The translations under genes and the position numbers were made by a program. From NCBI GenBank assembly GCA_049115575.1, contig JAGDZU010000001.1, positions 30,851-94,850 of the forward strand: 64,000 nucleotides of DNA, in the 5' to 3' direction. The stretch is from Bacteroidia bacterium. GTDB lineage: Bacteria > Bacteroidota > Bacteroidia > NS11-12g > UBA9320. This document shows, piece by piece, positions 14,290-63,018 of the stretch (position 1 is its first letter; every line of letters starts with the position of its first letter). The notes under the pieces were generated by a model. That model saw only the letters and a program-made list of their open reading frames with translations, ran no database searches and was not told the origin of the DNA.

Positions 14290-14319
14290 GGCTCGCCAAT
14301 CGGCGGGCCATTCTTTTTT
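14290..14319 (+). terminator. Plus-oriented intrinsic-terminator-like hairpin abutting the cyclase stop codon, with no plus-strand gene upstream
   Basis: GGCTCGCC-AATC-GGCGGGCC then ATTCTTTTTT. It lies 420 nt of non-coding sequence downstream of the 13183-13899 gene. Confidence 0.4.
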
Positions 14320-16360
14320 AAGCTGGATTTAGCTCAGTCTTAGATTCTGTTATGTCGATTTCGGGTTCATAGCCAGGTGCAAAAGTCACAAAGTACATAT
14401 CAATTGCGCCTTTGTGCTTAGCTTCAATCTTTCCTCTATGTTCAAACTCAAACATAGGGTCGTCTTTAATGATGTTGTAAGTATCGCTGGATATGTTTAC
14501 GTGTCCTACCTTACCTGAAGATTCCATTCTAGCGGCTGTATTCACAGTATCTCCCCAAATGTCATATTGGAATTTCTTGACACCTACGATTCCAGCAACT
14601 GCTGATCCCGTGTGTATGCCAACCCTCATTTCAAATGCAATTTTGTCATCAGCATCCATGGCTGCTTTTCTTTCCGTGATAAATAGCTGCATTTCAAGCG
14701 CTGCCTGTACGGTATGGCTTACAGATCCGCTTTCTGGAACAGGTAGCCCACCAGCTGCCATGTATGCGTCTCCAATGGTTTTAATTTTTTCTACATTATA
14801 CTTCTCCATAATGCGGTCAAATGCTTCAAAACAAGCATTTATTTCCATTACTAATTCAGTCGCTGATAGTTTTTCAGATGTTTGTGTAAACTCTTTGAAG
14901 TCTGTAAATAGAATCGTCACCTTGTCGTGGTTCTTTGCTGCGGCAAATCCTTTTTCTTTTAGTTCCTTCGCTATCTCTTCGGGAAGAATGTTCAGTAATA
15001 ATTCATCCGATCGATCTCTTTCCTTTCTAATGATTTTTCTTGACTTTCTTACTACCCTTAGTTGTGCAAATAGACCACCAGCGATAATAAAGACGATTAG
15101 ACCGCCTATCATCATATAGTTTCTAATCTTAGTGGTTTTTTCAACTTCTGCTTTGTGTTCAAGTTCCGTTCTTAGGCGTTCTTCTTCTTTTTGAAGGCTG
15201 TCATTTCTGAACTTCACTTTTTGCATTTGAAGCTCCTTGGTGTGCTCTAACTTCTTGAGCATGTCTTCGGTCTGGTCAGAGGAAAGCTGATCGTTTAGCA
15301 TCATCATTCTTTCCATATAGGCTAATGCATAGTCTTCGTTGCCTTTGCGTTTATGAGACAAATAAAGACATTCGCAGGCATTGAATTGCTGTAGGGTAAG
15401 TTGTTGTTGTTCGCTGATTAAGTAACTTTTTTCGCACCATTCTATGGCTTTGTCGTACTTCTTGAATTTAATATTTACATCACCAATGTTGGTTTGAGAT
15501 ATACTCATTCCTTTTTTGTCATTATTGGCCTCCTGTAACTTTAAACATCGCTTGAAGTAATCTTCTGCCTTGCTGTATTCTTCAGCTCTATTAAAAAGGT
15601 TTCCTAGGTTATTGAGCGCAGTTGCTTCTCCAATTTGGTCCCCTAGCCCTTGGTAAAGGCTTAAGCTTTTATTGTAGTACTCCATAGCTTTAGCACCATT
15701 GCCAAGTTTGCTATAAACCATACCCATATTGTTGTTAGACGAGGCTATGCCAGATTTGTTATCCATTTTTTCGTCTATTGCAAGGCTCTTGCTGAAGTAA
15801 TCTAACGCTTCTTCGTTCTTATTCTGCAATGAGTATACAGAACCAATATTGGAGTAGGTAACTGCCAAGCCGGCCTGATCATCTATTTCCAATTTGATGG
15901 TTAAGCTTTCTAGGTAATGCTCTAGGGCTTTCGGATAATCTCCTAAGTTGTCGTATACAGTTCCTACATTATTATGTGAGCTTGCGATGCTTGCTTTAAC
16001 CTTAGATTCTCGGGCGATGTCAAGACTAGCCATGTAATGATTCAGGGCTTTGATGTAAGCGGTCTCTACATAGTAAGTGCCTCCTATTATAGTATGGGCT
16101 TCTATTTGGTGGTTAATTAAGTTGTGCTCAATGGCCATGCCTAGGACTGCTGTTGCTATATTTCTACTTGAGTCCGGATGGCTATAAAGCAAGTTTCTTG
16201 CTAGCTCTTCAGCTGCTTCCAATCTGTCATCATCACCCAGTTCAATGTTATTCCAGTCTTTGAGAAGTTGCTCATTGCTCTGGCCTTTGGCTTCAGAAAT
16301 AAATAATAAAGTACTACACAGAAAAAAGCTTAGAAACAGGCTGCGTCTTGTCGATTTCAT
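14318..16360 (-). CDS. Class III adenylate/guanylate cyclase with an N-terminal periplasmic TPR-repeat sensor region and a single TM helix
   Basis: Signal peptide, multiple TPR-like repeats (NLGNLF.., NIGSVY..), a TM segment (MMIGGLIVFIIAGGLFA), a coiled coil, then a cyclase domain (KIKTIGDAYMAAGGLP; GIHTGSAVAGIVGVKKFQYDIWGDTVNTAARMES). Confidence 0.8.
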   Translation of the reverse strand: MKSTRRSLFLSFFLCSTLLFISEAKGQSNEQLLKDWNNIELGDDDRLEAAEELARNLLYSHPDSSRNIATAVLGMAIEHNLINHQIEAHTIIGGTYYVETAYIKALNHYMASLDIARESKVKASIASSHNNVGTVYDNLGDYPKALEHYLESLTIKLEIDDQAGLAVTYSNIGSVYSLQNKNEEALDYFSKSLAIDEKMDNKSGIASSNNNMGMVYSKLGNGAKAMEYYNKSLSLYQGLGDQIGEATALNNLGNLFNRAEEYSKAEDYFKRCLKLQEANNDKKGMSISQTNIGDVNIKFKKYDKAIEWCEKSYLISEQQQLTLQQFNACECLYLSHKRKGNEDYALAYMERMMMLNDQLSSDQTEDMLKKLEHTKELQMQKVKFRNDSLQKEEERLRTELEHKAEVEKTTKIRNYMMIGGLIVFIIAGGLFAQLRVVRKSRKIIRKERDRSDELLLNILPEEIAKELKEKGFAAAKNHDKVTILFTDFKEFTQTSEKLSATELVMEINACFEAFDRIMEKYNVEKIKTIGDAYMAAGGLPVPESGSVSHTVQAALEMQLFITERKAAMDADDKIAFEMRVGIHTGSAVAGIVGVKKFQYDIWGDTVNTAARMESSGKVGHVNISSDTYNIIKDDPMFEFEHRGKIEAKHKGAIDMYFVTFAPGYEPEIDITESKTELNPA

Positions 16361-16725: not shown

Positions 16726-16760
16726 AGCCCAGGCATCTAACCAATGTCTGGGTTTCTTTT
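16726..16760 (+). terminator. Plus-oriented terminator-like hairpin in the divergent promoter region just upstream of icmF
   Basis: CCCAGGCAT-loop-ATGTCTGGG followed by TTTCTTTTTG. Confidence 0.35.
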
Positions 16761-16795
16761 TGCATAAGATTATCTTTGCAGCCACAATCAAGTTC

Positions 16796-19700
16796 ATGAT
16801 CAGTACCGAAGTATATATTCCTAAGAACAAGGTAAGAATTGTTACAGCAGCTTCTTTGTTCGATGGTCACGATGCGGCAATCAATGTGATGCGTCGTATT
16901 ATTCAATCTACAGGGTGTGAAGTTATCCATCTTGGGCACGACAGAAGTGCTGAAGAAGTTGTTGATACGGCTATTCAAGAAGATGCAAATGCCATCGCCA
17001 TGACCTCCTATCAAGGTGGGCATATGGAATATTTTAAATATATGTATGACCTCCTTAAAGAAAAAGGGGCCAGCCATATTAAAATCTTTGGAGGAGGTGG
17101 TGGAACTATTCTGCCTTCGGAGATCAAAGAATTACAGGAGTATGGAATTGCTCGGATATATCATCCTGATGATGGCAGAGAAATGGGCCTACAAGGTATG
17201 ATTAATGATTTAGTAGAAAAGGCTGATTTTCCTACCGGTTACTCATTGAATGGAGAACTAGAATCGTTTAAAACAGGAGATAAGATGTCTATTGCCAAGG
17301 TGATCTCAGCTGCTGAAAATTACCCTGATGAGCATGTTGGAAGCCTAAAGATTATAGAAAAGGAAGCTGATCAAATTCATACACCGATATTAGGTATTAC
17401 CGGCACTGGAGGAGCTGGTAAGTCAAGTCTAGTTGACGAACTAGTTAGAAGATTCTTGCTAGATTTCGAAGATAAAACCATTGCCATCATCTCAGTAGAT
17501 CCATCTAAAAGAAAAACAGGAGGTGCACTTTTGGGTGATCGAATTCGCATGAACAGTATCAGGAACGAGCGCGTTTATATGCGATCGTTGGCAACAAGAC
17601 AAGCAAATTTGGCACTGTCTAAACATATAGATACAGCCATTGATATTCTTAAAGTTGCGGGCTATGATTTAATCATTTTAGAAACATCTGGTATTGGCCA
17701 GAGTGATACAGAGATTACCGACCATTCTGATGTGAGCCTGTACGTTATGACTCCTGAATATGGAGCTGCTACTCAACTCGAGAAGATTGATATGCTTGAC
17801 TTTGCAGACCTAATTGCAATTAACAAGTTTGATAAAAGAGGTGCTCTAGACGCTTTAAGAGATGTAAAAAAACAGTTTCAACGAAACAATAAACTGTTTG
17901 ATGCTGATGTTGAAAGCATGCCAGTTTATGGTACAATAGCTTCCCAATTCAATGATCCTGGAGTGAATTCTTTGTACTCAAGACTCATAGAAACCATTAA
18001 TCAGAAGAAAGATGCAGGATTGCCTTCTGGTGCTAAGGAGGAAACTGATTTATCAGAGAAGATCTATATAATTCCTCCCAAAAGGATTAGGTACTTATCA
18101 GAGATTGCTGAAAATAATAGAGCGTATGATGAGTGGGTTGAAAAACAAGCCAAAATAGCCCAAAAGCTCTACGGGATTAGAACAACCATAACTACTCTAG
18201 AAGAAGAAAAAGATGGAGATCACCAAGTGGTTATAGAGCAGCTGCAAACCAGCTATAAGAAGTTATCACTTGATTTTGATCCTAAACTGCAGATACTGTT
18301 AGATGAATGGGGTCAGGTAAAAGAAGATTATAATAACGACATCTATACTTATTTAGTTAGAAACAGAGAGATTAAAGTGGAAACCAAATCACTTTCTCTT
18401 TCTCATCAAAAAATTCCAAAGGTCTCCTTGCCAAAATACGAGGCGTGGGGAGACGTGTTGAAATGGAATTTGCAAGAGAATGTGCCAGGCAAGTTTCCAT
18501 ATACCGCAGGAATCTACCCTTTCAAAAGAGAAGGGGAGGATCCTACTCGAATGTTTGCAGGTGAAGGTGGTCCAGAAAGAACCAATAAGCGATTCCATTA
18601 CTTGAGTTTAGAAATGCCAGCCAAAAGATTGTCAACTGCATTTGATTCCGTAACTCTTTATGGCAACGATCCTGACTACAGGCCAGATATATATGGGAAA
18701 ATAGGTAATGCAGGTGTTTCAATTTGCTGTCTTGACGATGCTAAAAAGCTTTACAGTGGATTTAATCTAGCAGACCCAAAAACTTCCGTGTCCATGACAA
18801 TAAATGGACCAGCCCCTATGTTGCTGGCGTATTTCATGAATGCAGCTATAGACCAACAATGTGAGCTTTACATTAAAGAACAAGGACTTGAAAAGGAAGT
18901 TGCTGCAAAAATTGAGAAGTATTTTGCAAATAAGGGAAGTAAACAGCCCCAATACAATGGAGATCTTCCTGAAGGGAATGACGGTCTTGGTTTAATGCTA
19001 CTAGGCCTGACCGGAGACAAAGTGTTAGATGCAGAAACCTACGCTAATATAAAAGCAGAAACTTTAAAGCAGGTTAGAGGAACGGTTCAGGCAGATATTT
19101 TAAAAGAGGATCAGGCTCAAAATACATGCATATTCTCAACCGAATTTGCACTGAGGTTGATGGGTGATGTACAGCACTATTTCATAGATAATGGGGTAAG
19201 GAATTTTTATTCAGTTTCAATATCGGGTTACCATATAGCAGAAGCCGGAGCAAATCCAATTACCCAATTGGCGTTCACTTTAGCCAATGGTTTTACTTAT
19301 GTAGAGTACTACCTAAGTAGAGGTATGGACATAAATCAATTTGGTCCGAACCTGAGTTTCTTCTTTTCAAATGGAATTGATCCTGAATACGCGGTTATTG
19401 GAAGGGTGGCAAGACGAATATGGGCAAAAGCCATGAAATTAAAATATGGAGCCGATCCAAGAGCTCAGATGCTGAAATACCACATACAGACATCGGGTAG
19501 AAGTTTGCATGCTCAAGAAATTGATTTCAATGATATAAGAACTACTCTCCAAGCATTGTACGCTATATATGACAACTGCAATTCGCTACATACCAATGCA
19601 TATGATGAGGCTATTACCACTCCAACGGAAGAGTCGGTAAGGCGAGCAGTTGCTATTCAACTTATTATTAATAGAGAACTGGGATTGGCTAAAAATGAGA

Positions 19701-20176
19701 ATCCATTACAGGGCTCTTTTATTATCGAAGAACTGACAGATCTAGTTGAGGCAGCAGTATTAACTGAGTTTGATAGGATAACAGAAAGAGGAGGGGTGCT
19801 TGGTGCTATGGAAACCATGTATCAAAGAAGTAAAATCCAAGAGGAAAGTTTGTATTACGAAACTTTGAAGCATACAGGTGAGTACCCAATAATTGGGGTG
19901 AATACTTTCTTGAGCTCTAAAGGGTCCCCTACAATACTTCCCAAAGAGGTAATTCGCGCAACCGAAGATGAAAAGAAATTCCAAATTAATACATTGAACG
20001 AGCTTCATTCGAGGAATTCTAGTGAGACATCAGAACACCTAAAAGATGTTCAGAAAGTGGCATTGAGCAATGCCAATGTGTTTGAGGCCTTAATGGAAGC
20101 AGCAAAGTATTGTTCTCTAGGCCAGATTACTTCATCTCTATTTGAAGTTGGTGGGCAGTATAGAAGAAATATGTAA
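16796..20176 (+). CDS. icmF: Fused isobutyryl-CoA mutase IcmF (B12-binding domain + MeaB-like G-protein + mutase catalytic domain)
   Basis: N-terminal B12 domain ([24 protein letters not shown], DxHxxG), P-loop GTPase ([17 protein letters not shown]) and a C-terminal mutase substrate-binding barrel. The start [12 protein letters not shown] aligns with known IcmF N-termini. The ORF-track start at 16760 is probably too far upstream. Confidence 0.85.
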
Positions 20177-34342: not shown

Positions 34343-34441
34343 CTTTGTGTATCTTGAGTTACACACAGGTTATTAACAATAATGCCTAACTTTGGAGCTA
34401 GATTATCACACTTACAGTGTAATGTGACTGACCTTAGTATT

Positions 34442-34939
34442 ATGAAGAGACGACTAATTAAATCAACACTCCTGATAGGAGCTCTGGTTATTTTAAGCAC
34501 AGTTTCAGCTCGTGCGCAAGCTTTGCAAAGACAATCGATTGGTTTTATAGGTGGATCCACCGATTTTACTCAAGGATTGTTTGTTCAATCGATAGTTGGG
34601 CAGCCCTATTCCTTGACTCCATCTTCCTTTGATTCATATTATGTAAATCCTGGATTCGAACAAAGTGCTCTAGTGCAAACAGCACCTCTTGAATTAGAAA
34701 TCAATACCCTCATTTATCCCAATCCAGCAAATGCCACTTTAAATATAGAAGTAGATGTAGCAGATGTAAGAATGTCTATTATGGATCTTCATGGAAGATC
34801 CGTTTACCATGCAGAACTTGCTGAAAACCAAATTCATAATGTAGACTGTAAGAACTGGTCGGCAGGAACATATTTTGTACTTTTTTTTAAGAACGATCAC
34901 CAAATACAAGCTTCAAAGCTTGTTATAGCACACCAATAA
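34442..34939 (+). CDS. Small secreted protein with a T9SS type A C-terminal sorting domain (Por_Secre_tail)
   Basis: Signal peptide (MKRRLIKSTLLIGALVILSTVSARAQ) and a C-terminal CTD (LIYPNPANATLNIEV ... GTYFVLF ... KLVIAHQ). Only about 60 residues of passenger lie between them. TAGCTTTG -7 motif at 34340-34347. Confidence 0.6.
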   Translation: MKRRLIKSTLLIGALVILSTVSARAQALQRQSIGFIGGSTDFTQGLFVQSIVGQPYSLTPSSFDSYYVNPGFEQSALVQTAPLELEINTLIYPNPANATLNIEVDVADVRMSIMDLHGRSVYHAELAENQIHNVDCKNWSAGTYFVLFFKNDHQIQASKLVIAHQ

Positions 34940-34940
34940 A

Positions 34941-35570
34941 ATGAAACAATATTTATCATATTTAAGCATTGTCCTTTTGCTTCTAATAGGAGCAAATGAA
35001 TCAAAAGCGCAATTGAGATTAACAGTGGAAGCTTCCCAGTTTAGCTCAAATTTCCTTTTCACAGATAGTGATGGAGAACGGGATAACAACTATACGGCTA
35101 AGCTAACCGGAGCTTATAGAGTTGGTTACCAAGTAAAATGGAATAGTGGAATTTATTTTAGGAATTCTATTGGGATTCGTAAAGCTGGCGCCACTTATGA
35201 ATTTAATGGAATTAATAATGATTGGGATTTACAATATGTTGAATTCCAGTTGGGACTTGGTTATATGAAGTATATGGAATCAATTGGAGTTTATATAGCC
35301 GTATCTCCATATTATGCTCATTTAACTAGAGGAAATCAGAGGTTAAGCGGAATCAACTATAATCTGGTTAATTCAGATAACTTTAATGTAAATGAGATTG
35401 GAGTGACTGCACGAGGAGGATTGCTCATTGATCTATCTGAGCAACTCGATTTGAATGTTGGGGTTTCATTCCTTAGAGGATTCACAAACCTTGAACTTGA
35501 AGATAATGGGCAAATAACAAATAGTCAATCTATGGGATTTGACTTGGGATTAGCATTTAAAATTGATTAA
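34941..35570 (+). CDS. Small outer-membrane beta-barrel protein (8-strand OmpW/PorT-like size)
   Basis: Signal peptide, 209 aa, alternating hydrophobic strands, C-terminal LGLAFKID; 1-nt gap from the preceding gene. Confidence 0.5.
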   Translation: MKQYLSYLSIVLLLLIGANESKAQLRLTVEASQFSSNFLFTDSDGERDNNYTAKLTGAYRVGYQVKWNSGIYFRNSIGIRKAGATYEFNGINNDWDLQYVEFQLGLGYMKYMESIGVYIAVSPYYAHLTRGNQRLSGINYNLVNSDNFNVNEIGVTARGGLLIDLSEQLDLNVGVSFLRGFTNLELEDNGQITNSQSMGFDLGLAFKID

Positions 35571-35573
35571 GAA

Positions 35574-38423
35574 ATGAAAAAGATTGTATTTAAATTTACT
35601 GTACTATCCTTAGTGCTTGGGTTCAGTTTTATAGCCCATGGACAAACTAGACCTCCTTTAGAAGGAATAAGCTATCAAGCGGTGATTCTTGATACTGAAG
35701 GTCAGGACCTAGTTGGTGTAGATGCCACTGGACTGCCTTTGCACAAACGAACAATAACTTTAAAGTTCACAATTACAAGTGGAAACAATGGGCCTGTCTA
35801 TTATGAGGAAACTCATTCCACTGCAACAGATCCTTATGGGCTTGTTTCTGTTGTAATTGGTAAGGGCAACTTATCGGGTCAGGGCCAGTTTACAGATTTA
35901 ATGGATTTGCCTTGGAATTTGGTGGATCAATGGTTGATAGTAGGGGTAGATGTTAACAACGATGGAGTTTTCTCAGTATTGAGTAATCAAAAATTCATGG
36001 CTGTACCTTTCGCTTATTATGCAGATAGAATTTCTGATAATTCTATTGGATCTGAACAAATACTAGATGAGTCAATAACTGCTAACGACATAGATACGGG
36101 AGCGGTAACCACTTCTGAGATTTTGGACGAAACCATCTTAGCAGAAGACATTGCCACTGGAGCAGTATCCTCAGATGAGATTTTGAACGAAACCATCTTG
36201 GCTGAAGATATTGCTACTGGAGCGGTAACTACAGATGAGATTCTGAACGAAACCATCTTAGCAGAAGACATTGCCACTGGAGCGGTAACTACAGATGAGA
36301 TTCTGAACGAAACCATCTTGGCTGAAGATATCGCCACTGGAGCGGTAACTACAGATGAGATATTGAACGAAACCATCTTGGCTGAAGATATTGCCACTGG
36401 AGCGGTAACTACAGATGAGATTTTGAATGAAACCATCTTGGCTGAAGATATCGCCACTGGCGCAGTAACTACAGATGAGATTCTGAACGAAACCATCTTG
36501 GCTGAAGATATCGCCACTGGAGCGGTAACTACAGATGAGATTTTGGACGAAACCATTACGGCTGATGATATTGGTCCTGGTGCTGTTACAGGTGATGAAA
36601 TTTTAGACGAGTCAATTACTGCGGACGACATAGACACAGGAGCCGTAACAACATCCGAAATCTTAAACGAAACCATTTTGGCTGAAGATATCGCCACTGG
36701 CGCTGTAACTACAGATGAGATCTTGGACGAGACCATCTTGGCAGAAGACATTGCCACAGGTGCGGTAGAGACTTCAGAGATTTTGAATGAAACCATTTTA
36801 GCGGAAGATATTGCCACAGGAGCAGTAGAGACTTCGGAGATCTTGAATGAGACCATCTTGGCAGAAGACATTGCCACAGGTGCGGTAGAGACTTCAGAGA
36901 TCTTGAATGAGACAATCTTGGCAGAAGACATCGCGACTGGAGCGGTTGAGACTTCGGAGATCTTAAATGAAACCATACAAGCTGAAGATATAGATACAGG
37001 CGCAGTAACAACCTCAGAAATCTTGGATGAAACTATTTTAGCTGAGGATATTGCAAGTGGAGCGGTGACTACAGATGAGATCTTAGATGAAACAATTCAA
37101 GCTGAAGATATAGATACGGGTGCTGTCACAACTTCTGAAATCTTGAACGAAACTATACTAGCAGAAGATATTGGAACGGGTTCCGTAGAAACTTCAGAGA
37201 TATTGGATGAGACCATTCTAGCGGAAGATATCGCTACTGGTGCTGTAGAGACCTCAGAGATTTTGGATGAGACCATCTTGGCGGAAGACATCGCTACAGG
37301 AGCAGTAGAAACTTCGGAGATTTTAGATGAGACCATCTTGGCGGAAGATATCGCTACTGGAGCAGTAGAAACTTCGGAGATTTTAGATGAGACCATTTTA
37401 GCAGAAGACATTGCTACTGGAGCAGTAGAGACCTCAGAGATTTTGGATGAGACCATTCTAGCGGAAGATATCGCTACTGGTGCAGTAGAGACCTCAGAGA
37501 TTTTGGATGAGACCATCTTGGCGGAAGACATTGCTACTGGTGCAGTAGAGACCTCTGAGATATTGGATGAGACCATTTTAGCGGAAGATATCGCTACTGG
37601 TGCAGTGGAGACTTCTGAAATCTTAGATGAGACCGTTTTGGCGGAAGACATCGCTACAGGAGCAGTAGAAACTTCTGAAATCTTAGATGAGACGATCTTG
37701 GCAGAAGATATCGCTACAGGTGCAGTAGAGACCTCTGAGATATTGAATGAGACCATTCTAGCGGAAGACATTGCTACTGGAGCAGTGGAGACTTCTGAGA
37801 TATTGGATGAGACCATTATGGCCGGAGATATCGCTACGGGTGCTGTTACGTCTTCAGAGATTCTTAACGGAACTATAGTGAATGATGATATTGCCGATGG
37901 AACAATTGATGCTTCGAGCAAACTTAATGGTGTTGTTCCCGTTTCTATTGGAGGTACTGGTCGTTCTGATGTAAGCTCTGGAAGCTTAGTTGTAGGCAAC
38001 GGCACAGCTCCTCTTGGAACTCTTCCGGTTAATGATTCGATTATGGTGATTACTAATATTTCGGGTACAACTGAGCTTTATAAAGTAACAGCAGGTCTTC
38101 GTACTTTCTTGAATATTGACACAGTGAATAAGACCATAGAGATTTCAGCTATAGACCAAAGCGGTGGTCCAAATACAGGGACAGGTTCTGTATCCGTTCC
38201 AAATTTAAGTCCAGGTGATCAGGTTGAACGTAACTTTCCATCTTCAGGTGTGGAAATTGGTGACATAATTCTAGCAACTTTGGACACAGACCTAGAAGGA
38301 CTGACCTTGACCGCCTATGTGAGACAAAATGGGCAAGTACGGGTTATTTTCTACAATGGATCCAATCAAAATGTGAACCTTGGACCGGTGAATGTGAGTT
38401 TTGCCAATTTTGGTCAACCGTAA
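35574..38423 (+). CDS. Secreted, highly acidic tandem-repeat protein: about 31 copies of a 20-aa unit (consensus sEILdETILAEDIATGAVet) between unique N- and C-terminal domains of about 150 aa each
   Basis: Signal peptide, in-frame 60-bp DNA periodicity across roughly 1.86 kb, unique termini, and no T9SS CTD. Confidence 0.7.
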   Translation: MKKIVFKFTVLSLVLGFSFIAHGQTRPPLEGISYQAVILDTEGQDLVGVDATGLPLHKRTITLKFTITSGNNGPVYYEETHSTATDPYGLVSVVIGKGNLSGQGQFTDLMDLPWNLVDQWLIVGVDVNNDGVFSVLSNQKFMAVPFAYYADRISDNSIGSEQILDESITANDIDTGAVTTSEILDETILAEDIATGAVSSDEILNETILAEDIATGAVTTDEILNETILAEDIATGAVTTDEILNETILAEDIATGAVTTDEILNETILAEDIATGAVTTDEILNETILAEDIATGAVTTDEILNETILAEDIATGAVTTDEILDETITADDIGPGAVTGDEILDESITADDIDTGAVTTSEILNETILAEDIATGAVTTDEILDETILAEDIATGAVETSEILNETILAEDIATGAVETSEILNETILAEDIATGAVETSEILNETILAEDIATGAVETSEILNETIQAEDIDTGAVTTSEILDETILAEDIASGAVTTDEILDETIQAEDIDTGAVTTSEILNETILAEDIGTGSVETSEILDETILAEDIATGAVETSEILDETILAEDIATGAVETSEILDETILAEDIATGAVETSEILDETILAEDIATGAVETSEILDETILAEDIATGAVETSEILDETILAEDIATGAVETSEILDETILAEDIATGAVETSEILDETVLAEDIATGAVETSEILDETILAEDIATGAVETSEILNETILAEDIATGAVETSEILDETIMAGDIATGAVTSSEILNGTIVNDDIADGTIDASSKLNGVVPVSIGGTGRSDVSSGSLVVGNGTAPLGTLPVNDSIMVITNISGTTELYKVTAGLRTFLNIDTVNKTIEISAIDQSGGPNTGTGSVSVPNLSPGDQVERNFPSSGVEIGDIILATLDTDLEGLTLTAYVRQNGQVRVIFYNGSNQNVNLGPVNVSFANFGQP
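36061..37920 (+). repeat. In-frame 60-bp tandem repeat array (about 31 units) within the 949-aa CDS
   Basis: Direct inspection shows units differing almost exclusively at synonymous codon positions. Two sub-families are present, a ...TTDEILNETIL... block and a ...ETSEILDETIL... block. Confidence 0.9.
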
Positions 38424-53411: not shown

Positions 53412-56400
53412 ATGCGTTTTATTACTTTACTAGCCGTTGCATTAATGGCCCAGATTTCTGTTTGGGGTCAAAGTAAGGTATCCGTTACTATTACCAAGCC
53501 CTCAGAATTTCATCTTTGTATAGTTTCTGATTTAGTAGATATTGAAGTTAGAAATATTACAACAGGAACCGTTACAGGGTTAGAAGTGCAATTAGACCTA
53601 CCTACAGGCGTGCAGTATGACTCTAACTCTGTTTTAGGAGTAGGAATATCTGAAAAGAACGTAAGCAACCTTTCCAAACCTATTTTTAGTGTGGATGACT
53701 TGGCTTTTGCATCTTCTCGCACTTTGTCATTCAAATTAAAAATTGATTGTTCTGTTTCCGCCTTTCTCAATGGAGGAGGAATTGCTCAAATTAAATCCAT
53801 CACCAACTATACTGGTGGTTCTGTTAACGAGAACTCTACTGCGCTTAATATAAAGCAACCTTCATTGCAAATTCAAAGCATAAGCAAACAACTGTATACC
53901 GCAGATGTAGGAGAGGTATTTGTAAGGGAAATCAAACTCAAGAACAGCGGAACTGGAAAAATTGCCCAATTTGAATTGAGAAGGATATATGAAAATGGTT
54001 TGATTCATGTTGGAACCAGTGGTAAAACAAATCAAAGCTCATTAGATACTTTCTGGACGTTCTTAGACAGTAGTGATATAGTACTTCAAGGGAATTATGA
54101 TAAGTTCCTAGACCTGAATGAAGAAGTTGTTATTTCAGATACAATGCGGGTAGATGGCTGTAACAACCTAGGCACAGATTACAGTGTTGCTTGGGGGTGT
54201 TATGGGGTGTTTTGTGATGTGAAAAAGGCTTCGGCCAATGTGAGTATATCCAATAAGAATCCAGACATTGTATTTACTCCGCGTTCTTATACCAGCAATT
54301 GCTTGGACAAATCTACCAATCATCTACAAGAGCTCATTATTTATAATAAAGGAGATGATACCGCCAGACAATTCGATCTACATTTATTTCAATCTCGGGG
54401 AACAGGATTTAGCATATATGTTTTGTCCGAGATGGATTACAACAGTTTTAGAACAAGAACAAGTCTGAATGGAGCAACAAGCAATATTATTCCCTATAAG
54501 GCTTCTAATGGGGCTGCTACAGGAATATATGCCTGCTTGAACAGCAATTCAGTGGGAGAAGCATTTTTCAATTTGGGTAATATAGCTCCTGGAGATTCTG
54601 TAATCATGTCTTGGAATTCCATTTCATGTTGTCCTACCATATGCAATGCCAGCGTCTTCATAAGCCATAGATGGAAATTTGAATCAAACTTTAAAGATCA
54701 ATGTGATAAGCTGAATTCAACACCGGAAGGCTGGGGAAGTTATGGGCTCACACAGAGTGTAGTTATAAGTAAGTTCACTCCAACCGATATTTTAGATGGC
54801 CAAACAAAAAGGTTAGAATACTCTTTTAGCAATGGATATTTGTTAAGACCACGTGCTTCATCTCAATTAACAGTTGAGTTGGTTTTGCCCAGTGGACTTA
54901 GTCACAGTTTGCTGAAGTCAGACATAGAGTTCAGACATCCGAATGGAAGCAATTGGCAACCTGACTATTTTAGTTCAAATGGTGATACCGTAAGAGCTTT
55001 TTTTAATGGCGTACCTAAAGTCACACTTACCAGAGGAGAATTGCTTATTGATATCAAAGGAGATTGCGGAAGTGGATCAGGCAATAAAGATGTGACTTAT
55101 GATTTCACTCTGAAATACAATCCCGATACTACCTGTAGTAGTAATTGCGCTTATAAGGTTTATTGCACTACGGACAAAATCAAAGTCCATTGTGCTACGA
55201 GTTGTTCTGCAGGACTACATTTCAACGATTTTGAAGCAAAGCGTGTGAATTATGGTTTACCAGATGCCAATAATGATGGTATAGCAGATGCATCAGGGAA
55301 TATTGATTTAGACAAAATAAAAACGCATAAAGTAATGGTGGGCGATACGCTTGTGACCACCTTTAGAGCAGATGTGGGAAATGCGGGTTCAATTACAAAC
55401 TGGTACCACGGAAAGGCAACATCAAAAGTTACTTTTGGTAGCTATCTGAAAGTAGAAGATGTTAGAATTAAAATATACCGTAATTCAGGATTGCTATTCA
55501 ATTGCAATAACATTATCTATAGCTCCACAACGGTTGGCACCACACAGACATTTACATTCGATATTGGGTATACCAATTTAACCAATTCAGGTTGTGTAAC
55601 ATATTCTACCTTCTCATATTTGAGTGTAGATAGTATAGAGCTTGAAGTAACCTATGTAGTGGATCAGAATCCTGGGAATGCAGAAAGGCAAATGTATTTC
55701 GACAATGATTTCTATTTGTCTTCTGTTGCCAGCCCAACAAGCAGCCAGAAATATCAATGTGATAGTTTTTCTGCCAAAATGAGCTTGATTGGTTATTACT
55801 TCACCAACTATGGACGTAACCTCATCAATGCCAGTGGATGTTCCGACTTCTATGCCAATCAGAATTTTTATTTAAGCGTTGGTAGATGTTGTACAAATTA
55901 CGGCGGAGGAAATATCTTTCCATATGAATACAGACCTTGGGCAAAACTCAATGAAATAATTTTCAATAAACCCGCTGGATTCGATGTAAAAAATGGCAGA
56001 TTTATTCAATATAGAACAGCGGGAACCGGTGCTGTGGGAACGCAGCGAATAGATACTATTTCACCATCCACGGTTAGTCCTACCTCTATTAATTATAGAA
56101 CTGATTCTCTATATGAAGATTTGGGGGGTCCAATACTCATAAGTGATGATGGTTTTCACGGTACATTCACGGCCACTCTTGAAGCCAATTGTCTAGCTCA
56201 ATCTGGAGCTCATTCATTGGAATATGGGTTTGTATTTGAAAAATTGGCTGTGCTTGGAGGGGGCTTGGATACACTTTATAGCAATGCCCAAGATGACCAA
56301 GTGAATTACGCAAAACCGGAATTCAACATTATTCCTAAAGATCCATACATTTATGCAGAAAGTGACACGGTTGAATGGGATGTAAGAGTGATAAACATTA

Positions 56401-59400
56401 CTGCAAATTCGGCTGCAGAAAACGTTTGGATTGGTGCTCAAGTTAGCCCCAATGTGGAGTTGGTAGAAGTGATTGATCTTAAAACTAATACTCCTTTAGT
56501 TAAACAGAATGATCTGTTCTTAATAGGGCCATATGGCATACTTGAACAGAAGGACTATAGATTGAGAGCAGTATATAAATCCTGTGCAACAGACAGTGTT
56601 AAACTCGAGCTTGGTTTTGATTGCAGAGGCTATACAGACTCAATAGCAGATTTTCCTTGTAATACTACAAGCATAAATCTCTATTATGAGCCTATTAACA
56701 CAAGGCTTGAAGCCAATATTCTAGACTCCACATCTCAAGCTCATTTATGTGAAGATCAATTCTACAATATTCAAATCAGAAATACTGGAGCTCCAAAAGT
56801 GTTTGATGTCTATTTAGATATGTTGCTAAGGCCCGGTATGATTTTAAAAGATACTGCATGGTTATTTGTGGATGGCAGGGCAGATTCCACCATGATCACC
56901 AATCCGGTTTGGATAAATGGCAATACAAAACGATGGAATATTTCTAGTCAAGACAGTCTGTTGCTCAACTTGGGTATGAATGGTGTGAAAAGCTCAGATG
57001 GTTATGTGCTCACATTAAGAGTGGTGATCAGCACGGATTGTGATTTTACCAGCTCTACTTCTTTCTTGATTAAACCTGGCGGGTATTTAAAATGTGGCAC
57101 TCCAGTGAATGCTGGATTCAGCATAGGAGACCCTATTGATATAATAGGAGTGACCAAACCTTATTTTTCTTCCTTGGCTTATAAAATGAATCCATTGGAA
57201 GTCTGTGAGTTTATAGACAGCACTTATGTGTCCTTTATTAACTTAGGCCCAGATACTACCGGTCATACAGATCAGATTATTATTAGCTTGCCAGAAGGTA
57301 TAACCATAGACACTAACTTCTTAAGTGTGATTAACCAAGGTCCAACATCCTACAAATACGAGTTTAAGAACGGCGAGAATGTCTTTAGTTATAAGCTGCC
57401 TTCAGGAATAACAGTTGGAGACAGTTCAGTATTCTATTTAAAGACGCAATTATCAAATACAGAATTGTCTTGTGAAACGCAACAGATTTTTGTGCAAGCA
57501 GTTATCGAACAATCTGTGTTGTGTGTTAAAGACAGCTCTTATTGTGATATAAATGTAGCTACCAGTTCAGTTGTTATTACCGATACAGTTAAAAAGGCAG
57601 AATATGCGCTTGCATTCGGCTCAGCTACATCTATAGCCACAGGCAATAATGAAACTGTGAGCTTGAATTATGACATTAGCAATGTTGGCCTAAGTAAACG
57701 TATAAATGATTTACTAGTAGTTGATCTCATATTGGATCAAAATGGAAATGGTTTGGTAGATCCTGGAGATAGCCTATTGTTATCAGATAGTGTTTGGAGT
57801 GCAATATCTTCTAATTCTTCCATAAACAGAGTATTGAATTTTGATGTCTTGTCTAACAAAACCTGTGATTTGTTATTGTCTATAGATAGTACAAATTGTG
57901 CTTGTGAAACAACAGTCATTAGAATACCATTTATACAATTGCTCAATGCTGGGCCAGATACTTTGGCATGTCCTGGCGTGAGTTTCAGCATAGGTCAAGC
58001 CGGTAACGCCTTTGTAAATTACAGTTGGAACAATGGCTCATTCTTAAGTGATTCCAACCTGAGTAGAACCGTATTTACAGGTGTGAATACTACAACTTCT
58101 CAATTGAGTATTGAAATGGTTTTACTCTCAGATAAGGGCAAGTGTTCTTCTTCAGACACTATGTATGTCACTCTAAATCCAGGTATGCAATTGAACCTGG
58201 TAGATTCTGTGAAAATGTGTAAAGGAAGTAGAGTATTAATAGGAGATCCTGTAATTGGAGGAGTGGGTACTTTAAAAGATTACGTTTGGTCCCCAATTGA
58301 TAGCTTAAGTAGACCTACTGGAGTTAGAACTTATGCCAATCCTACTGTGAGTACTATGTACAAAGTTCAAATCACGGATGATTCTGCATGCGTTATCTCA
58401 GATTCAACTTACGTTGAAGTCATTGAAACACCACTTGCAGATTTTGAGCTTCGCGACACCTGTGCCAATTCATTGGTGAGCTTTAAGAACACATCTGATT
58501 TTTACAGTGAACCCGTTGACAGTGTTTTATGGACTTTTGGTTCATTAAGTTCAAGCCAATTGTATTCCCCATCAGTCTTTATAGATAGTAGCCAGTTTAT
58601 GCAAATAGAGCTCTATATAGGCAATAGCCAAGGATGTTGGGATACCACTACTAAAACTTTAGAACTATACCCACTGCCAAATGCGGCAATGGAAATTAGA
58701 GATGATTGTGAAGGGGATACTAGCCTGTTTAAAGCACTTTCTACTATAGAATATGGCAGTCTTAATCATGAGTGGTTAATAAATGGAGATAACTTTAACT
58801 CAAATCAGCTGTTATATACCTTGCCTCTTGGAAATGCACAAGAAGTGCTATTAAAAGTATGGTCAGATAAAGGTTGTTATGATCAGCTGAAAGATACCAT
58901 TGTGCTATTTGAGAAGCCATTACTAGATATCTCGGCGGGGAATCATTGCTTTGGAGACAGTATTACAATTAGCGGCGCGCAACTGGCTAATGATGCTTTG
59001 GTTTCCTACCAATGGCTAGTAAATGGTGTAGCAGTGTCTCAAAGTCAGCAGTTCAATCATCTTATGTTGGATACAGGAATTCACAACATCTTATTCATGG
59101 CAGAAACGGCAAATTCTTGTAGAGATACCGCCGGTCTACAAGTGAAGACCAATGAATTGCCAATAAGCAATTTTGTTGGAAATGATTTATGCCTTCAAGA
59201 CACCTTCTTTTATGCAGATAGATCAACAATTTCAAATGGATCAATAAGTCAAGTGTATTGGGATCTTGGTTCTGGATTTGTATTGGGAGCAGACAGTTCT
59301 TTCTATATTCCAATTAGTCAAGGGTTGATAAACTTGGGTCAGAAAGTAATATCTGATAATGGATGTTTAGATTCTAGTTATCAAAACTTTAATGTTCATT

Positions 59401-60623
59401 TTAGAGAAAGGGCAGATTTGATTACAAGTGGTAATTGTGTAAATGAGTTGATCAACCTTAGAGCAAACCCATATAGTGCTGACTCTGTAAGTTCCGTTTC
59501 TTGGACTGTAGATGGGTTTGACCTCTCGGGATTGAATGTGAACTATCTATTTCCATCTAGTGGAGTATATAATGTAAATCAAATAGTCACCACCAATAGA
59601 GGTTGTACAAGTTCCAATAATTTTAACATTACTGTAGATCCTGCTCCAACGGCAGTTTTAGGAACAGAACTGTTTTGCAATGACAATCAGGTGAGATTCT
59701 CGAGCAATTCTACCAATAACCAATGGTCTTTAGGTGATGGCAATGTATCTAGTTTAGCCAACTTTGTTCACGATTATGCATCTGTTGGGAGCTACCCTGT
59801 TGAACTCATAGTTACTAACCAATTTGGTTGTAAAGACACTGCAACTCAATTGGTGGTTATATCTAACATAGTGATTCCTGAATTCAGTATTGAAAACCTT
59901 TGTGAAGACGAGAAGCAGTGGGTAGTTAATTTAACATCTGGTCAGGGCGTACCATTGTCAAAGGCGGAATTTGATATGGGTAACGGAGACTTAATTCAAT
60001 CTTTTGATTCCTTTGAATATGCATATAATACAGCTGGAACATATGATGTGAAATTAACAGTAACTACTAGCACAGGTTGTGATTATGACACTTCTCAGCA
60101 GCTTGTAGTACATCCTTTACCTACAGCAGGTTTTAGTTTTAGCCCTGTAGAAGCCGATATATTCAACTCAGTGATTGTTTTTACAGACGAAAGCCAAGGG
60201 GCCGATCAATTGTGGTATTTAATAAGTGATGGTGGTAGCTATCAGATTCCGGACTTTAGCCATGAATTCCTAGATAGCGGGAGTTATAGTGTTAAGCAAT
60301 GGGTGAACACTCAATTTGGTTGCTCAGATAGTATAACCAAAGAAGTTTATATCAGATACGCTTACAGATTGCACATTCCAAATGTGTTCACTCCAAATCA
60401 AGATGGACTGAATGAAAGCTTTAAACCAGTAGGAATCGGCTTGAAGTCCTATGAGCTTGAAATTTATAACAGATGGGGTGAATTAATCTTCCGCTCATTG
60501 GGCCCAAATGATGCCTGGGATGGTCAAGACGCTATCCAAGGTTATTACCTTTATAACATCAGAGCCATCGACTTTGAAGACAATGTTCACAGCTATAAAG
60601 GTGGCGTGTATCTATTAAAATAG
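53412..60623 (+). CDS. Giant cell-surface adhesin-like protein with PKD/Ig-like repeats and a T9SS type B C-terminal domain (gliding-motility-associated CTD)
   Basis: Signal peptide and repeated PKD-like modules of about 80-90 aa in the C-terminal half (W.FGDG..S...P.H.Y...G.Y.V.L.V...GC.D-like). Terminal type-B CTD (PNVFTPNQDGLNESFKP ... YELEIYNRWGELIF ... WDGQ ... YYLYNI). Confidence 0.75.
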   Translation: MRFITLLAVALMAQISVWGQSKVSVTITKPSEFHLCIVSDLVDIEVRNITTGTVTGLEVQLDLPTGVQYDSNSVLGVGISEKNVSNLSKPIFSVDDLAFASSRTLSFKLKIDCSVSAFLNGGGIAQIKSITNYTGGSVNENSTALNIKQPSLQIQSISKQLYTADVGEVFVREIKLKNSGTGKIAQFELRRIYENGLIHVGTSGKTNQSSLDTFWTFLDSSDIVLQGNYDKFLDLNEEVVISDTMRVDGCNNLGTDYSVAWGCYGVFCDVKKASANVSISNKNPDIVFTPRSYTSNCLDKSTNHLQELIIYNKGDDTARQFDLHLFQSRGTGFSIYVLSEMDYNSFRTRTSLNGATSNIIPYKASNGAATGIYACLNSNSVGEAFFNLGNIAPGDSVIMSWNSISCCPTICNASVFISHRWKFESNFKDQCDKLNSTPEGWGSYGLTQSVVISKFTPTDILDGQTKRLEYSFSNGYLLRPRASSQLTVELVLPSGLSHSLLKSDIEFRHPNGSNWQPDYFSSNGDTVRAFFNGVPKVTLTRGELLIDIKGDCGSGSGNKDVTYDFTLKYNPDTTCSSNCAYKVYCTTDKIKVHCATSCSAGLHFNDFEAKRVNYGLPDANNDGIADASGNIDLDKIKTHKVMVGDTLVTTFRADVGNAGSITNWYHGKATSKVTFGSYLKVEDVRIKIYRNSGLLFNCNNIIYSSTTVGTTQTFTFDIGYTNLTNSGCVTYSTFSYLSVDSIELEVTYVVDQNPGNAERQMYFDNDFYLSSVASPTSSQKYQCDSFSAKMSLIGYYFTNYGRNLINASGCSDFYANQNFYLSVGRCCTNYGGGNIFPYEYRPWAKLNEIIFNKPAGFDVKNGRFIQYRTAGTGAVGTQRIDTISPSTVSPTSINYRTDSLYEDLGGPILISDDGFHGTFTATLEANCLAQSGAHSLEYGFVFEKLAVLGGGLDTLYSNAQDDQVNYAKPEFNIIPKDPYIYAESDTVEWDVRVINITANSAAENVWIGAQVSPNVELVEVIDLKTNTPLVKQNDLFLIGPYGILEQKDYRLRAVYKSCATDSVKLELGFDCRGYTDSIADFPCNTTSINLYYEPINTRLEANILDSTSQAHLCEDQFYNIQIRNTGAPKVFDVYLDMLLRPGMILKDTAWLFVDGRADSTMITNPVWINGNTKRWNISSQDSLLLNLGMNGVKSSDGYVLTLRVVISTDCDFTSSTSFLIKPGGYLKCGTPVNAGFSIGDPIDIIGVTKPYFSSLAYKMNPLEVCEFIDSTYVSFINLGPDTTGHTDQIIISLPEGITIDTNFLSVINQGPTSYKYEFKNGENVFSYKLPSGITVGDSSVFYLKTQLSNTELSCETQQIFVQAVIEQSVLCVKDSSYCDINVATSSVVITDTVKKAEYALAFGSATSIATGNNETVSLNYDISNVGLSKRINDLLVVDLILDQNGNGLVDPGDSLLLSDSVWSAISSNSSINRVLNFDVLSNKTCDLLLSIDSTNCACETTVIRIPFIQLLNAGPDTLACPGVSFSIGQAGNAFVNYSWNNGSFLSDSNLSRTVFTGVNTTTSQLSIEMVLLSDKGKCSSSDTMYVTLNPGMQLNLVDSVKMCKGSRVLIGDPVIGGVGTLKDYVWSPIDSLSRPTGVRTYANPTVSTMYKVQITDDSACVISDSTYVEVIETPLADFELRDTCANSLVSFKNTSDFYSEPVDSVLWTFGSLSSSQLYSPSVFIDSSQFMQIELYIGNSQGCWDTTTKTLELYPLPNAAMEIRDDCEGDTSLFKALSTIEYGSLNHEWLINGDNFNSNQLLYTLPLGNAQEVLLKVWSDKGCYDQLKDTIVLFEKPLLDISAGNHCFGDSITISGAQLANDALVSYQWLVNGVAVSQSQQFNHLMLDTGIHNILFMAETANSCRDTAGLQVKTNELPISNFVGNDLCLQDTFFYADRSTISNGSISQVYWDLGSGFVLGADSSFYIPISQGLINLGQKVISDNGCLDSSYQNFNVHFRERADLITSGNCVNELINLRANPYSADSVSSVSWTVDGFDLSGLNVNYLFPSSGVYNVNQIVTTNRGCTSSNNFNITVDPAPTAVLGTELFCNDNQVRFSSNSTNNQWSLGDGNVSSLANFVHDYASVGSYPVELIVTNQFGCKDTATQLVVISNIVIPEFSIENLCEDEKQWVVNLTSGQGVPLSKAEFDMGNGDLIQSFDSFEYAYNTAGTYDVKLTVTTSTGCDYDTSQQLVVHPLPTAGFSFSPVEADIFNSVIVFTDESQGADQLWYLISDGGSYQIPDFSHEFLDSGSYSVKQWVNTQFGCSDSITKEVYIRYAYRLHIPNVFTPNQDGLNESFKPVGIGLKSYELEIYNRWGELIFRSLGPNDAWDGQDAIQGYYLYNIRAIDFEDNVHSYKGGVYLLK

Positions 60624-60711: not shown

Positions 60712-63018
60712 ATGAAAGAGAATTTGATTTACATCTTGCCAATCTTCGGAGTTATTGGACTGATAGTCATGGCTTTAAAAGCCAGATGGGTGAACAAACA
60801 AGACGCTGGAGAGGAGAAAATGCAAACCCTTGCAAACTACGTTAAAGAGGGAGCATTGGCATTTCTTAAAGCGGAATACAGAATCTTAGCAATATTTGTT
60901 GTGATAGCGGGTGCATTATTAGCACTACTTTCTACTTATGTTGAAACTACACATTGGTTTATTGTAATTGCATTTGTAGTTGGAGCCGTGTTTTCTGCTG
61001 TTGCCGGAAATATTGGAATGAGAATTGCAACTTCTGCCAATGTTCGAACTACTCAGGCAGCTCGAACTAGTTTACCTCAAGCACTCAAAGTTTCTTTTAA
61101 CGGAGGAACAGTAATGGGTTTAGGTGTTGCAGGACTTGCAGTATTTGGTCTAAGTGCCATTTTTGCAATGCTTTTTGGGCATTTTGTAACCGGTGGAAAT
61201 TTCTATGATGAAATGACCATCGTTCTTGAAACCCTAGCTGGATTTTCTCTAGGTGCGGAGTCTATTGCACTTTTTGCTAGAGTAGGTGGAGGAATTTATA
61301 CTAAAGCAGCTGATGTTGGAGCGGATCTTGTTGGTAAAGTAGAAGCTGGTATTCCAGAAGATGATCCAAGAAACCCTGCTACCATAGCAGATAATGTTGG
61401 TGACAACGTAGGTGACGTTGCAGGTATGGGTGCCGATCTTTTCGGTTCATATGTGGCTACAGTTCTTGCATCTATGGTGTTAGGAAACTATATAGTAAAA
61501 GACATGGCTGAAAACGGTCAGGTGCTGGATAATTTTACGGGTACAGGTCCAATTTTACTTCCAATAGTAATTGCCGCAATAGGAATCATTTTTTCTATTG
61601 TAGGTACCTTCTTCATAAAAATTAAGTCTAACGAGGCCAAAGAAGCGGATGTTCAAAGAGCATTGAACATTGGTAATTGGGTTGCTTTAGGTCTTACAGC
61701 TTTTGCGGGTTATTTCGTGATAGATATGATGTTACCAGAAGTACTTCAAATGAAATTCTTTGGAGAAGATGGAGCTAGAGTTGTTCCAAGAATTAATATT
61801 TTCTACGCAACACTTATAGGTCTTGCAGTTGGAGGTTTAATTTCATTCTTTACAGAATACTACACTGGACTGGGTAAAAAGCCAGTTTTAAATATTGTAA
61901 AAAATTCATCCACTGGAGCAGCCACTAACATAATTGCTGGTTTGGCTACTGGGATGATTTCTACTTTTTCATCAGTTCTGTTATTCGCAGCTGCTATTTG
62001 GGCTTCTTATGCTTTTGCTGGTTTTTATGGTGTAGCTATTGCAGCTAGTGCAATGATGGCAACAACAGCTATGCAATTAGCAATAGACGCATTTGGACCA
62101 ATTGCCGATAACGCTGGCGGTATAGCTGAAATGAGTGAGCTTCCAGAAGAGGTAAGAGGAAGAACTGATATTTTAGACTCTGTAGGAAATACAACAGCTG
62201 CTGTTGGTAAAGGATTTGCAATTGCATCTGCTGCACTTACGGCTCTGGCCTTGTTCGCCGCATACGTAACCTTTACGGGCATAGATGGTATTAATATATT
62301 TAAAGCACCTGTGCTATCTGCTCTCTTTGTAGGGGGAATGGTGCCTGTGGTCTTTTCGGCATTAGCTATGCAGAGTGTTGGTAAAGCAGCCATGGAGATG
62401 GTGAAAGAGGTAAGAAGACAATTCAAGGAAATTCCAGGAATTATGGAAGGAACTGGAGAGCCAGAATATGGTAAATGTGTAGATATTTCTACCAAAGCCG
62501 CATTAAAAGAAATGATGCTCCCTGGTGCTCTAACAATCCTCAGCCCTTTATTGGTAGCTTTCTTAACCGGATTCTTTACAGGAGACTGGCTATTAGCTGC
62601 CGAAGTATTAGGTGGTTATATGGCTGGTGTATGTGTGAGTGGAGTTCTTTGGGCTATTTTCCAGAATAATGCTGGTGGAGCTTGGGACAACGCCAAGAAG
62701 TCTTTTGAGGCGGGTGTTGAAATAGATGGTGAAATGACGTTCAAAGGTTCAGAAGCTCATAAAGCAGCCGTTACTGGTGACACTGTTGGAGATCCTTTTA
62801 AGGATACTTCAGGACCGTCAATGAACATTTTAATCAAATTAACATGTCTTGTTGGACTAGTGATTGCTCCAATATTGCACCAAAAGGCTATGGAGAGCAA
62901 ATTGACTGTTAATAACGGAAGTGAGAATAATATTATCTTCGTAGAACCCGTTAGCCAGTCAGAAACACCTTCTTGCTGTGCAGACAAGGGAATGATGGAA
63001 GACATTAAAGCGCTCTAA
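60712..63018 (+). CDS. hppA: Membrane-bound proton/sodium-translocating pyrophosphatase
   Basis: Signature motifs [19 protein letters not shown] and [18 protein letters not shown]; 768 aa polytopic. Confidence 0.9.

Follow-up and report, generated by a model that had tools for sequence, protein, structure and literature searches.

In a 64,000-nucleotide stretch of the genome of a marine-type Bacteroidia bacterium (assembly GCA_049115575.1, contig JAGDZU010000001.1, positions 30,851 to 94,850; this whole stretch is called the window here, and coordinates refer to it unless stated otherwise), a gene for a putative secreted fibre protein contains 31 tandem units of 60 bp that differ from each other almost exclusively at synonymous sites, so that a 20-residue peptide is kept while its DNA varies. 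The original prediction for this region, made from the letters alone, had claimed such a pattern, and our analysis bears it out: with differences summed along a minimum spanning tree of the units, so that shared history is not counted repeatedly, 167.1 synonymous changes stand against 43.9 non-synonymous ones, and the ratio of non-synonymous to synonymous rates (dN/dS, or omega) is 0.06. We suggest, with a probability of roughly 0.62, that the array encodes the stalk of a surface fibre which is secreted, resembles tail fibres and is probably trimeric; selection would hold the units, whole units would turn over separately in each lineage, and silent sites would drift neutrally.

According to this model, each 20-residue unit would form one structural rung in which nearly every position is constrained, and amino acid changes in the units would be removed by selection. 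The length of the array would shift by whole units, via unequal recombination or gene conversion between units, and these changes would be independent in each lineage, leading to different stalk lengths. Silent sites would drift neutrally between such events; the outcome would be near-identical peptides encoded by DNA copies that are about 80% identical.

Silent divergence between the units of the array

The fibre gene and the parts of its repeat array are:

35574-38423, + strand: fibre gene, 949 amino acids (aa) plus stop, defined by the open reading frame (ORF), its translation and homologues; signal peptide, N-terminal domain (N-domain), stalk of 31 x 20 aa, neck and tip
36030-36059, + strand: degenerate decapeptide half-unit ISDNSIGSEQ, seen in the unit alignment, which leads into the array
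36060-37919, + strand: repeat array of 31 in-frame 60-bp units without indels, encoding ILNETILAEDIATGAVETSE and variants
36180-36539, + strand: block A, units 3-8, all ILNETILAEDIATGAVTTDE; unit 11 (36660-36719) belongs to the same group
36720-36959, + strand: block B, units 12-15, IL[DN]ETILAEDIATGAVETSE; units 12 and 14 differ at codon 3 alone
37200-37799, + strand: block C, units 20-29, ILDETILAEDIATGAVETSE with two single substitutions; includes mosaic units

The array was detected with Tandem Repeats Finder (TRF), and the frame of its units was set by the ORF 35574-38423. The sole TRF array of the window spans 36111-37843 (period 60, 28.9 copies, 80% matches, 0% indels); read in the frame of the ORF, the unit starts fall at 36060, and the frame is unbroken across 1860 nucleotides (nt). 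The array had been placed at 36061-37920 before, with its codons listed correctly but with a start that is one nucleotide out of codon register. The unit is built from two decapeptide half-repeats with the pattern [ED]-I-x-[DNT]-[EG]-[TA]-[IV]-x-x-x, and the 3'-most unit, unit 31, is degenerate. Two long antisense ORFs in the array region (36017-36976, - strand, 319 aa; 37097-38005, - strand, 302 aa) are best read as stop-free antisense frames of a periodic sequence, not as genes.

Pairwise diversity over all units is 0.545 at third codon positions, compared with 0.143 at first and 0.091 at second positions, and all 20 third positions of the unit are variable. Along the spanning tree the expected synonymous share is 24%, which the observed share exceeds with a binomial p of 4.5e-63; the corresponding proportions of synonymous and non-synonymous differences are pS 0.40 and pN 0.033. 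The two pairs of adjacent units singled out in the original prediction behave as described there: 11 nucleotide differences in 10 codons separate 37200-37259 from 37260-37319, and 5 separate 36180-36239 from 36240-36299, every one of them synonymous. Synonymous divergence is 0.42 with a dN of 0 in block A (units 3-8 and 11), 0.98 with an omega of 0.011 in block B, and 0.99 with an omega of 0.009 in block C; block A is the youngest of the three, and clearly younger than block C. A dN/dS much below 1 had been expected for these repeats, and the values are 0.06 for the array and 0-0.01 within the blocks. Far from dominating the array, DNA-identical units account for a single pair out of 465 (units 5 and 8), which lies in block A together with an exact repeat of 77 nt. 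The peptide had also been called invariant; over the whole array this does not hold, as there are 14 distinct 20-mers, three of which cover 20 of the 31 units, and units 1, 9, 10, 16-19, 30 and 31 carry several substitutions.

The proposal that the 20-mer is under strong purifying selection is supported by an omega of 0.01-0.06 and by the recurrence of the pattern in four related arrays (see below), and further because identical 20-mers recur in other genomes: exact window 20-mers were also found in, among others, L003, a Roseivirgaceae metagenome-assembled genome (MAG), and L019, an Ignavibacteria MAG. A repeating structural role is the natural reading of this constraint. The 620 residues of the array include 168 D+E and no K+R, giving a net charge of about -168, and such an acidic composition is compatible with the ion binding that had been proposed; the stalk might bind cations.

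Conserved repeated peptides with wobble drift are already familiar, and it is the degree of constraint that is the notable part here. In the serine-aspartate regions of the staphylococcal ClfA/Sdr proteins and in the NANP repeats of Plasmodium CSP, the repeated peptide is likewise conserved while its coding copies vary at wobble positions, and the usual reading is selection on the peptide combined with silent drift. Those units are short, of low complexity, and disordered or extended, whereas the window unit has 20 residues, is complex in sequence, and is probably a folded rung. The case at hand is an unusually clean, conceptually ordinary one of strong purifying selection on a repeated structural unit; it does not overturn current understanding, and its value is that of a well-characterised example and of a pointer to an uncharacterised surface structure.

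For protein repeats in general, horizontal spread within a protein has been described, with a correlation between physical and evolutionary distance and a dN/dS below 1 (Persi, Wolf & Koonin 2016, PMC5120217); that study also reports this horizontal evolution to be markedly accelerated, and purifying selection to be strongly relaxed, with positive selection, after duplication. The window array resembles these repeats in its distance correlation, in that similarity falls with the lag between units. Its paralogous units, with an omega of 0.01-0.06, nonetheless represent the strongly constrained extreme. In contrast to the general rule reported there, of relaxed selection after duplication, the array is a clean natural case of a long, protein-constant tandem repeat (block omega about 0.01) with drifting DNA and a measurable lineage-specific expansion.

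Unit turnover in the window and in related loci

The closest relatives that we compared all come from MAGs or metagenome assemblies:

L001: Bacteroidia MAG, 38 units; the contig ends within the array (position 1)
L002: Salibacteraceae MAG, 16 units
L035 (protein P0002): 11 units
L036 (protein P0001): 14 units; array at 6481-7320 of L036

Peptide-identical units in these four loci are 1-13 nt apart, and none of the pairs is identical at the DNA level. Unit omega is 0.044 in L001 and 0.069 in L002, and L035 and L036 show the same pattern by inspection. The units of L035 all share a lineage-specific peptide, ILDETILNEDIATGSVDSRT, and differ at silent sites only; expansion of a founder unit therefore came first there, and silent drift after it.

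Among units with the same peptide, the mean difference is 7.3 nt in the window, 8.9 nt in L001 and 8.0 nt in L002, while random codings of the consensus peptide, drawn with the codon usage of the window, would differ by 13-14 nt; the silent sites are far from identical yet unsaturated. Within the commonest peptide class, units are 7.8-8.7 nt apart inside a genome, compared with 11.7-12.5 nt between genomes. The nearest silent-site neighbour lies in the same genome for 37 of 37 units, and a difference as large as the observed one arose in 0 of 2000 label permutations. Peptide types follow unrelated orders in the window, L001 and L002, and copy number among the relatives runs from 7 (L004) to at least 38 (L001). 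From the clustering by genome, the unrelated order and the spread in copy number together it follows that the units are not position-by-position (1:1) orthologues. Each lineage expanded or turned over its own array after the genomes had split, with the peptide kept, and the units of the arrays are younger than the splits between the genomes compared.

These results bear directly on the possibility of an ancient and static array, made up of old, individually conserved orthologous units at a fixed copy number. Block dS values of 0.4-1.0, the lack of indels and the very small number of identical copies would all agree with such an array, but units that cluster by genome instead of by position, a wholly different order of peptide types in three genomes, several-fold copy-number differences between relatives, and a block A that is clearly younger than block C make it very unlikely. 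Accordingly, the description of the array as old in the original prediction stands as far as the block dS is concerned but has to be qualified, since the silent sites are unsaturated and the units postdate the genome splits. An old array of stable copy number gives way to expansion within each lineage, with long stretches of silent drift after it.

Within the window, unit similarity falls with distance: two units at lag 1 differ by 12.4 nt on average, and two at lag 10 by 16.8 nt. The array also contains exact in-register repeats of 77, 53 and 47 nt, compared with 30 +/- 4 nt in a codon-shuffled null, and unit 21 is a mosaic, whose 5' half is an exact copy of that of unit 25 while its 3' half equals that of unit 22 bar 1 nt. 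The four-gamete test is failed by 49 of 78 informative site pairs, but at a dS of about 1 on two-state sites recurrent mutation gives the same signal; half-units that match exactly argue better for exchange. Silent substitution has been far more frequent than duplication or conversion of whole units, although the latter did take place. The idea that copy number is stable is not supported on an evolutionary scale, given the range among relatives, the exact repeats and the mosaic units, and would hold at most over short times; a metagenome scan for loci of the same species retrieved only relatives at 48% identity or less. The related statement that the array is less recombination-prone than it looks is fair in comparison with an array of identical units, but the exact repeats and mosaics show that the array is not inert.

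Compared with surface-protein repeat arrays in concerted evolution, the present one shares a similarity that is higher within than between genomes, but it lacks near-identical DNA copies, as the block dS of 0.4-1.0 indicates. Nor does the array fit a phase-variable contingency locus, in which short, DNA-identical units switch expression by their gain or loss, usually through a frameshift: matches amount to 80% in TRF, a single pair among the 465 is identical, and classical phase variation is unlikely since gain or loss of 60 bp always leaves the reading frame intact.

It could also be argued that the unit differences or the copy number are unreal, owing to a strain-chimeric or mis-ordered assembly of the repeat. 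Runs of N are found inside the arrays of L005, L020, L021 and L023, and the contig of L001 ends in its array; an exact look-up of the window protein in the public collection returned no record. We nevertheless consider an artefact extremely unlikely: at 77 nt, the longest exact repeat is short enough for ordinary reads or k-mers to resolve the array, the reading frame runs through its full length without a single indel, the silent-only pattern appears in four independent assemblies, and an assembly error would not favour synonymous sites. As a separate observation, public MAGs assemble the arrays of this repeat family poorly, so that the copy numbers given for them are minimum values.

Silent heterogeneity might instead be selected for its own sake, if wobble-scrambled copies resist slippage and RecA-mediated deletion; the divergence would then be adaptive and not a side effect of age. 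The arrays are long, stalk length presumably matters, and across all five arrays, with 110 units, there is one DNA-identical pair, all of which would fit such selection. The codon entropy of the array, however, is not above that of the genome, and is below it for L, G, V and S, while silent divergence reaches about half to two-thirds of saturation. Adjacent units are more alike than distant ones, which is the opposite of neighbour avoidance; the latter was looked for by lag analysis among the window units and is absent. The exact repeats well beyond the shuffled null also argue against scrambling, and the missing identical units in the relatives may reflect ascertainment during assembly. We thus regard selection for scrambling as quite unlikely. 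A simpler variant, maximised codon diversity in the array, was rejected by the entropy and shuffled-run tests. Codon preferences in the window units are strongly position-specific: of 29 units, 23 have ACC at codon 5 and 22 have GTA at codon 16. Those of L001 are different (GTT and GAA), which matches the prediction of a founder effect.

The fibre protein and its closest known counterparts

Outside the array, the fibre gene encodes the following parts, for which structure was predicted with AlphaFold2 (AF2; confidence given as the predicted local distance difference test, pLDDT):

35574-35645, + strand: predicted Sec signal peptide MKKIVFKFTVLSLVLGFSFIAHGQ, read from the translation, with an inferred cleavage site
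35667-35996, + strand: N-terminal beta-sandwich domain, aa 32-141, pLDDT about 70-87
37920-38171, + strand: neck, with the motif VPVSIGGTG (VPVxxGGTG) conserved in relatives; low AF2 confidence
38172-38420, + strand: C-terminal beta-sandwich tip, aa 867-949, pLDDT 82-91

Profile searches place the repeats close to those of phage tail fibres. The PHROG profiles 892 ('tail fiber protein'), 21412 and 28766 match them with E-values of 3.8e-54 (892, over 11 stretches), 4.8e-27 and 3.3e-16, and in a tblastn search they aligned, at 29-34% identity and with E-values down to 3e-20, to phage proteins annotated as tail fibre, host-specificity J or minor tail protein, from marine phages and others. Among these, the 'host specificity protein J' of roseophage DSS3_VP1 and the 'tail fiber-like protein' of cyanopodovirus S-TIP37 share the I-x-D/N-x-T/A-I/V periodicity of the window repeats. 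At the level of sequence, the window repeats belong with the stalk repeats of phage tail fibres. Phage fibres and the window fibre are also alike in carrying their repeats between an attachment domain and a tip; on the other hand, the window gene is located among housekeeping genes and is not phage-borne, and its units are far more regular and more acidic than the phage repeats. In the same PHROG search, no match was obtained for the N-domain, the C-terminal domain, or the two partner genes of the fibre gene.

The 20-mer itself, or decapeptides related to it, can be found in very large proteins from groups that include Ignavibacteria, Kapabacteria and Flavobacteriaceae; these repeat-sharing proteins end in an S74 chaperone, C1q or YadA-anchor domain, or carry a sub-threshold match to a T7 tail-fibre N-domain. 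The S74 chaperone, C1q, YadA-anchor and collagen triple-helix families belong to obligate trimers. Because the partner domains belong to such trimers, the window protein would likewise be a trimeric fibre, and the 20-mer array one of several interchangeable stalk modules; we infer a trimer with a beta-rich stalk located at the cell surface. The window fibre itself has no YadA-like C-terminal anchor; only P0066, a distant protein that shares the repeats, has one. The stalk module has a giant relative in a Flavobacteriaceae MAG (L010, 286-12732), where an ORF of about 4149 aa consists of higher-order repeats that mix 20-mers of the ILNETILSEDI type, runs of the decapeptide KIADGxVTTxKI and a globular insert.

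A search with the N-domain (35643-36059) retrieved 7192 cluster representatives at E<=1e-3, and 841 at 1e-10. The domain is always N-terminal in the retrieved proteins, which range from 141 to 2953 aa, and the parts found downstream of it in relatives include collagen triple-helix repeats, S74 chaperone, PKD and Fib_succ_major domains. A Pfam search with the whole fibre was empty at E<=0.01, and relaxing the limit to E<=10 added a single spurious match; Pfam models exist for none of its parts, the N-domain included, which with its 7192 representatives indicates a large unannotated family. For PF25296 (Decapeptide), PF19264 (DUF5907) and Pentapeptide, the window fibre gives no match at or above the Pfam gathering score. 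The first two are listed for distant repeat-sharing homologues, and on rescanning one of these, P0022, we obtained a score above the cut-off for PF19264 (37.4 vs 27 bits) and one below it for PF25296 (29.3 vs 45 bits). At the other end of the fibre, a Foldseek search of the PDB with the tip found nothing at E<=0.001; its best local matches are the foot of the pyocin R1 fibre (6cxb, probability 0.97, template modelling score 0.41 on the target) and CBM3 modules, and the fold searches as a whole turned up nothing specific. The tips of relatives are divergent or of another type, with two tip types among the close relatives.

In the mosaic adhesive trimer (MAT) fibres of Bdellovibrio, an invariant N-domain sits beside the cell surface, and the trimeric beta-structures are intertwined (Caulton et al. 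2024, PMC10769870). Judged by its predicted architecture, the window fibre finds its closest described system in this MAT family (NF053851), as both have a signal peptide, a conserved N-domain, a long fibre and an exchangeable C-terminal tip; in line with the exchangeable modules of MATs, the N-domain family of the window combines with different stalks and tips. Membership in the family is not supported: the N-domain matches NF053851 (Bdello_MAT_N) weakly, with an E-value of 8e-6 and a score of 25.8 bits where the cut-off is 60, and eight homologues all lack a match at E<=0.001. Furthermore, the MAT stalk is described as a beta-helix or beta-prism, whereas the window stalk is a 20-mer array, and no predatory lifestyle is implied for the window host.

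Several observations weigh against our interpretation. The AF2 monomer models of the repeats have low confidence and are in conflict, with strands at a pLDDT of about 55 in one run and short helices at about 35 in another, so that the argument for a trimeric beta-stalk is one from domain associations only. A sequence search of the PDB with the repeats matched no solved structure; the weak matches were the decapeptide repeats of DotG (E 1e-3) and orf16 of Legionella phage LME-1 (9EG4, E 0.047). (The LME-1 paper cites 9EG4 for its cryo-electron microscopy models of capsid and portal-tail, and does not name orf16.) No signals of the type IX secretion system (T9SS), of autotransporters or of lipoproteins were recognisable in the fibre, and hence no export route across the outer membrane is indicated: the T9SS sorting domains PF18962/TIGR04183 (type A) and PF13585/TIGR04131 (type B) are missing even at E<=10, and the signal peptide, residues 2-17 of which AF2 models as a helix, has no lipobox cysteine. 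The relatives are moreover an assembly-biased sample, and the scarcity of identical units among them is in part a matter of ascertainment, because arrays of identical units break short-read assemblies. Finally, the silent sites are perhaps not purely neutral. The GC content of third codon positions (GC3) in the window array is 0.39, compared with 0.29 expected and 0.28-0.29 in the flanking domains of the same gene, and in L036 it is 0.58 compared with 0.35-0.41 in the flanking domains.

GC3 is not raised in the arrays of L001, L002 and L035. GC-biased conversion was considered as a cause of the raised values in the window and L036; the three unraised arrays speak against it. As a further feature of its codon usage, the window array over-uses the rare codons GCG, TCG and GAG.

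The three-gene cassette and its surroundings

Three tightly spaced genes, in an arrangement that at least 15 related loci share, end with the fibre gene. The following elements precede it:

34387-34394, + strand: taactttg, candidate promoter element by consensus match to TAnnTTTG only, about 48 nt before the ATG at 34442
34442-34939, + strand: cassette gene 1, small secreted protein (165 aa) with a signal peptide, about 65 aa, and a T9SS type-A C-terminal sorting domain
34941-35570, + strand: cassette gene 2, 209 aa with a signal peptide; at least 15 loci have it immediately before the fibre gene

The tail of the gene 1 product matches Pfam Por_Secre_tail (E 3.6e-13) and TIGR04183 (E 1.5e-8), and at least 15 related loci have a homologue in this position. 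Called mechanically, the ORF of this gene begins at 34382, while the internal ATG at 34442 yields the signal peptide MKRRLIKSTLL... TAnnTTTG is the -7 promoter motif of Bacteroidota, as established for Bacteroides promoters. The gene 2 product gave no Pfam match of its own, but it is 31% identical (E 3e-34) to the corresponding neighbour in L036, for which PF13505 (OMP_b-brl) is precomputed; it is thus probably a small outer-membrane beta-barrel. Partner genes for a T9SS-tailed protein and a beta-barrel are not described for MATs. Our guess would be that the fibre is anchored through either the neighbouring beta-barrel or the T9SS-tailed protein.

The cassette suggests how non-predatory Bacteroidota might display tail-fibre-like fibres, and together with the unannotated N-domain family it is the part of these findings most worth attention. 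A wider and rather unlikely possibility, which we put forward as speculation, is that the cassette is an undescribed, widespread mount for trimeric tail-fibre-like fibres in Bacteroidota and their relatives, in which the acidic stalk would act as a cation-loaded spacer of adjustable length and the silent heterogeneity would be selected as array-stabilising, similar to codon scrambling.

The genes that flank the cassette are housekeeping genes (sucC, tsaC, nnr, pepO and a gene for enoyl-CoA hydratase), and because of these surroundings the fibre locus is not a prophage. Elsewhere in the window, a PorU-like Peptidase_C25 protein of 1278 aa (4799-8635, - strand) and a PKD-domain protein of 2403 aa with a CHU_C T9SS signal (53412-60623, + strand) fit a T9SS-bearing Bacteroidota genome. 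A TPR-repeat protein with an adenylate/guanylate cyclase catalytic domain is encoded at 14318-16360 (- strand), and a single ORF of 1138 aa at 16760-20176 (+ strand) combines B12-binding, MeaB GTPase and methylmalonyl-CoA mutase parts, as in the IcmF-like fused mutases. A membrane H+-pyrophosphatase is encoded at 60712-63018 (+ strand).

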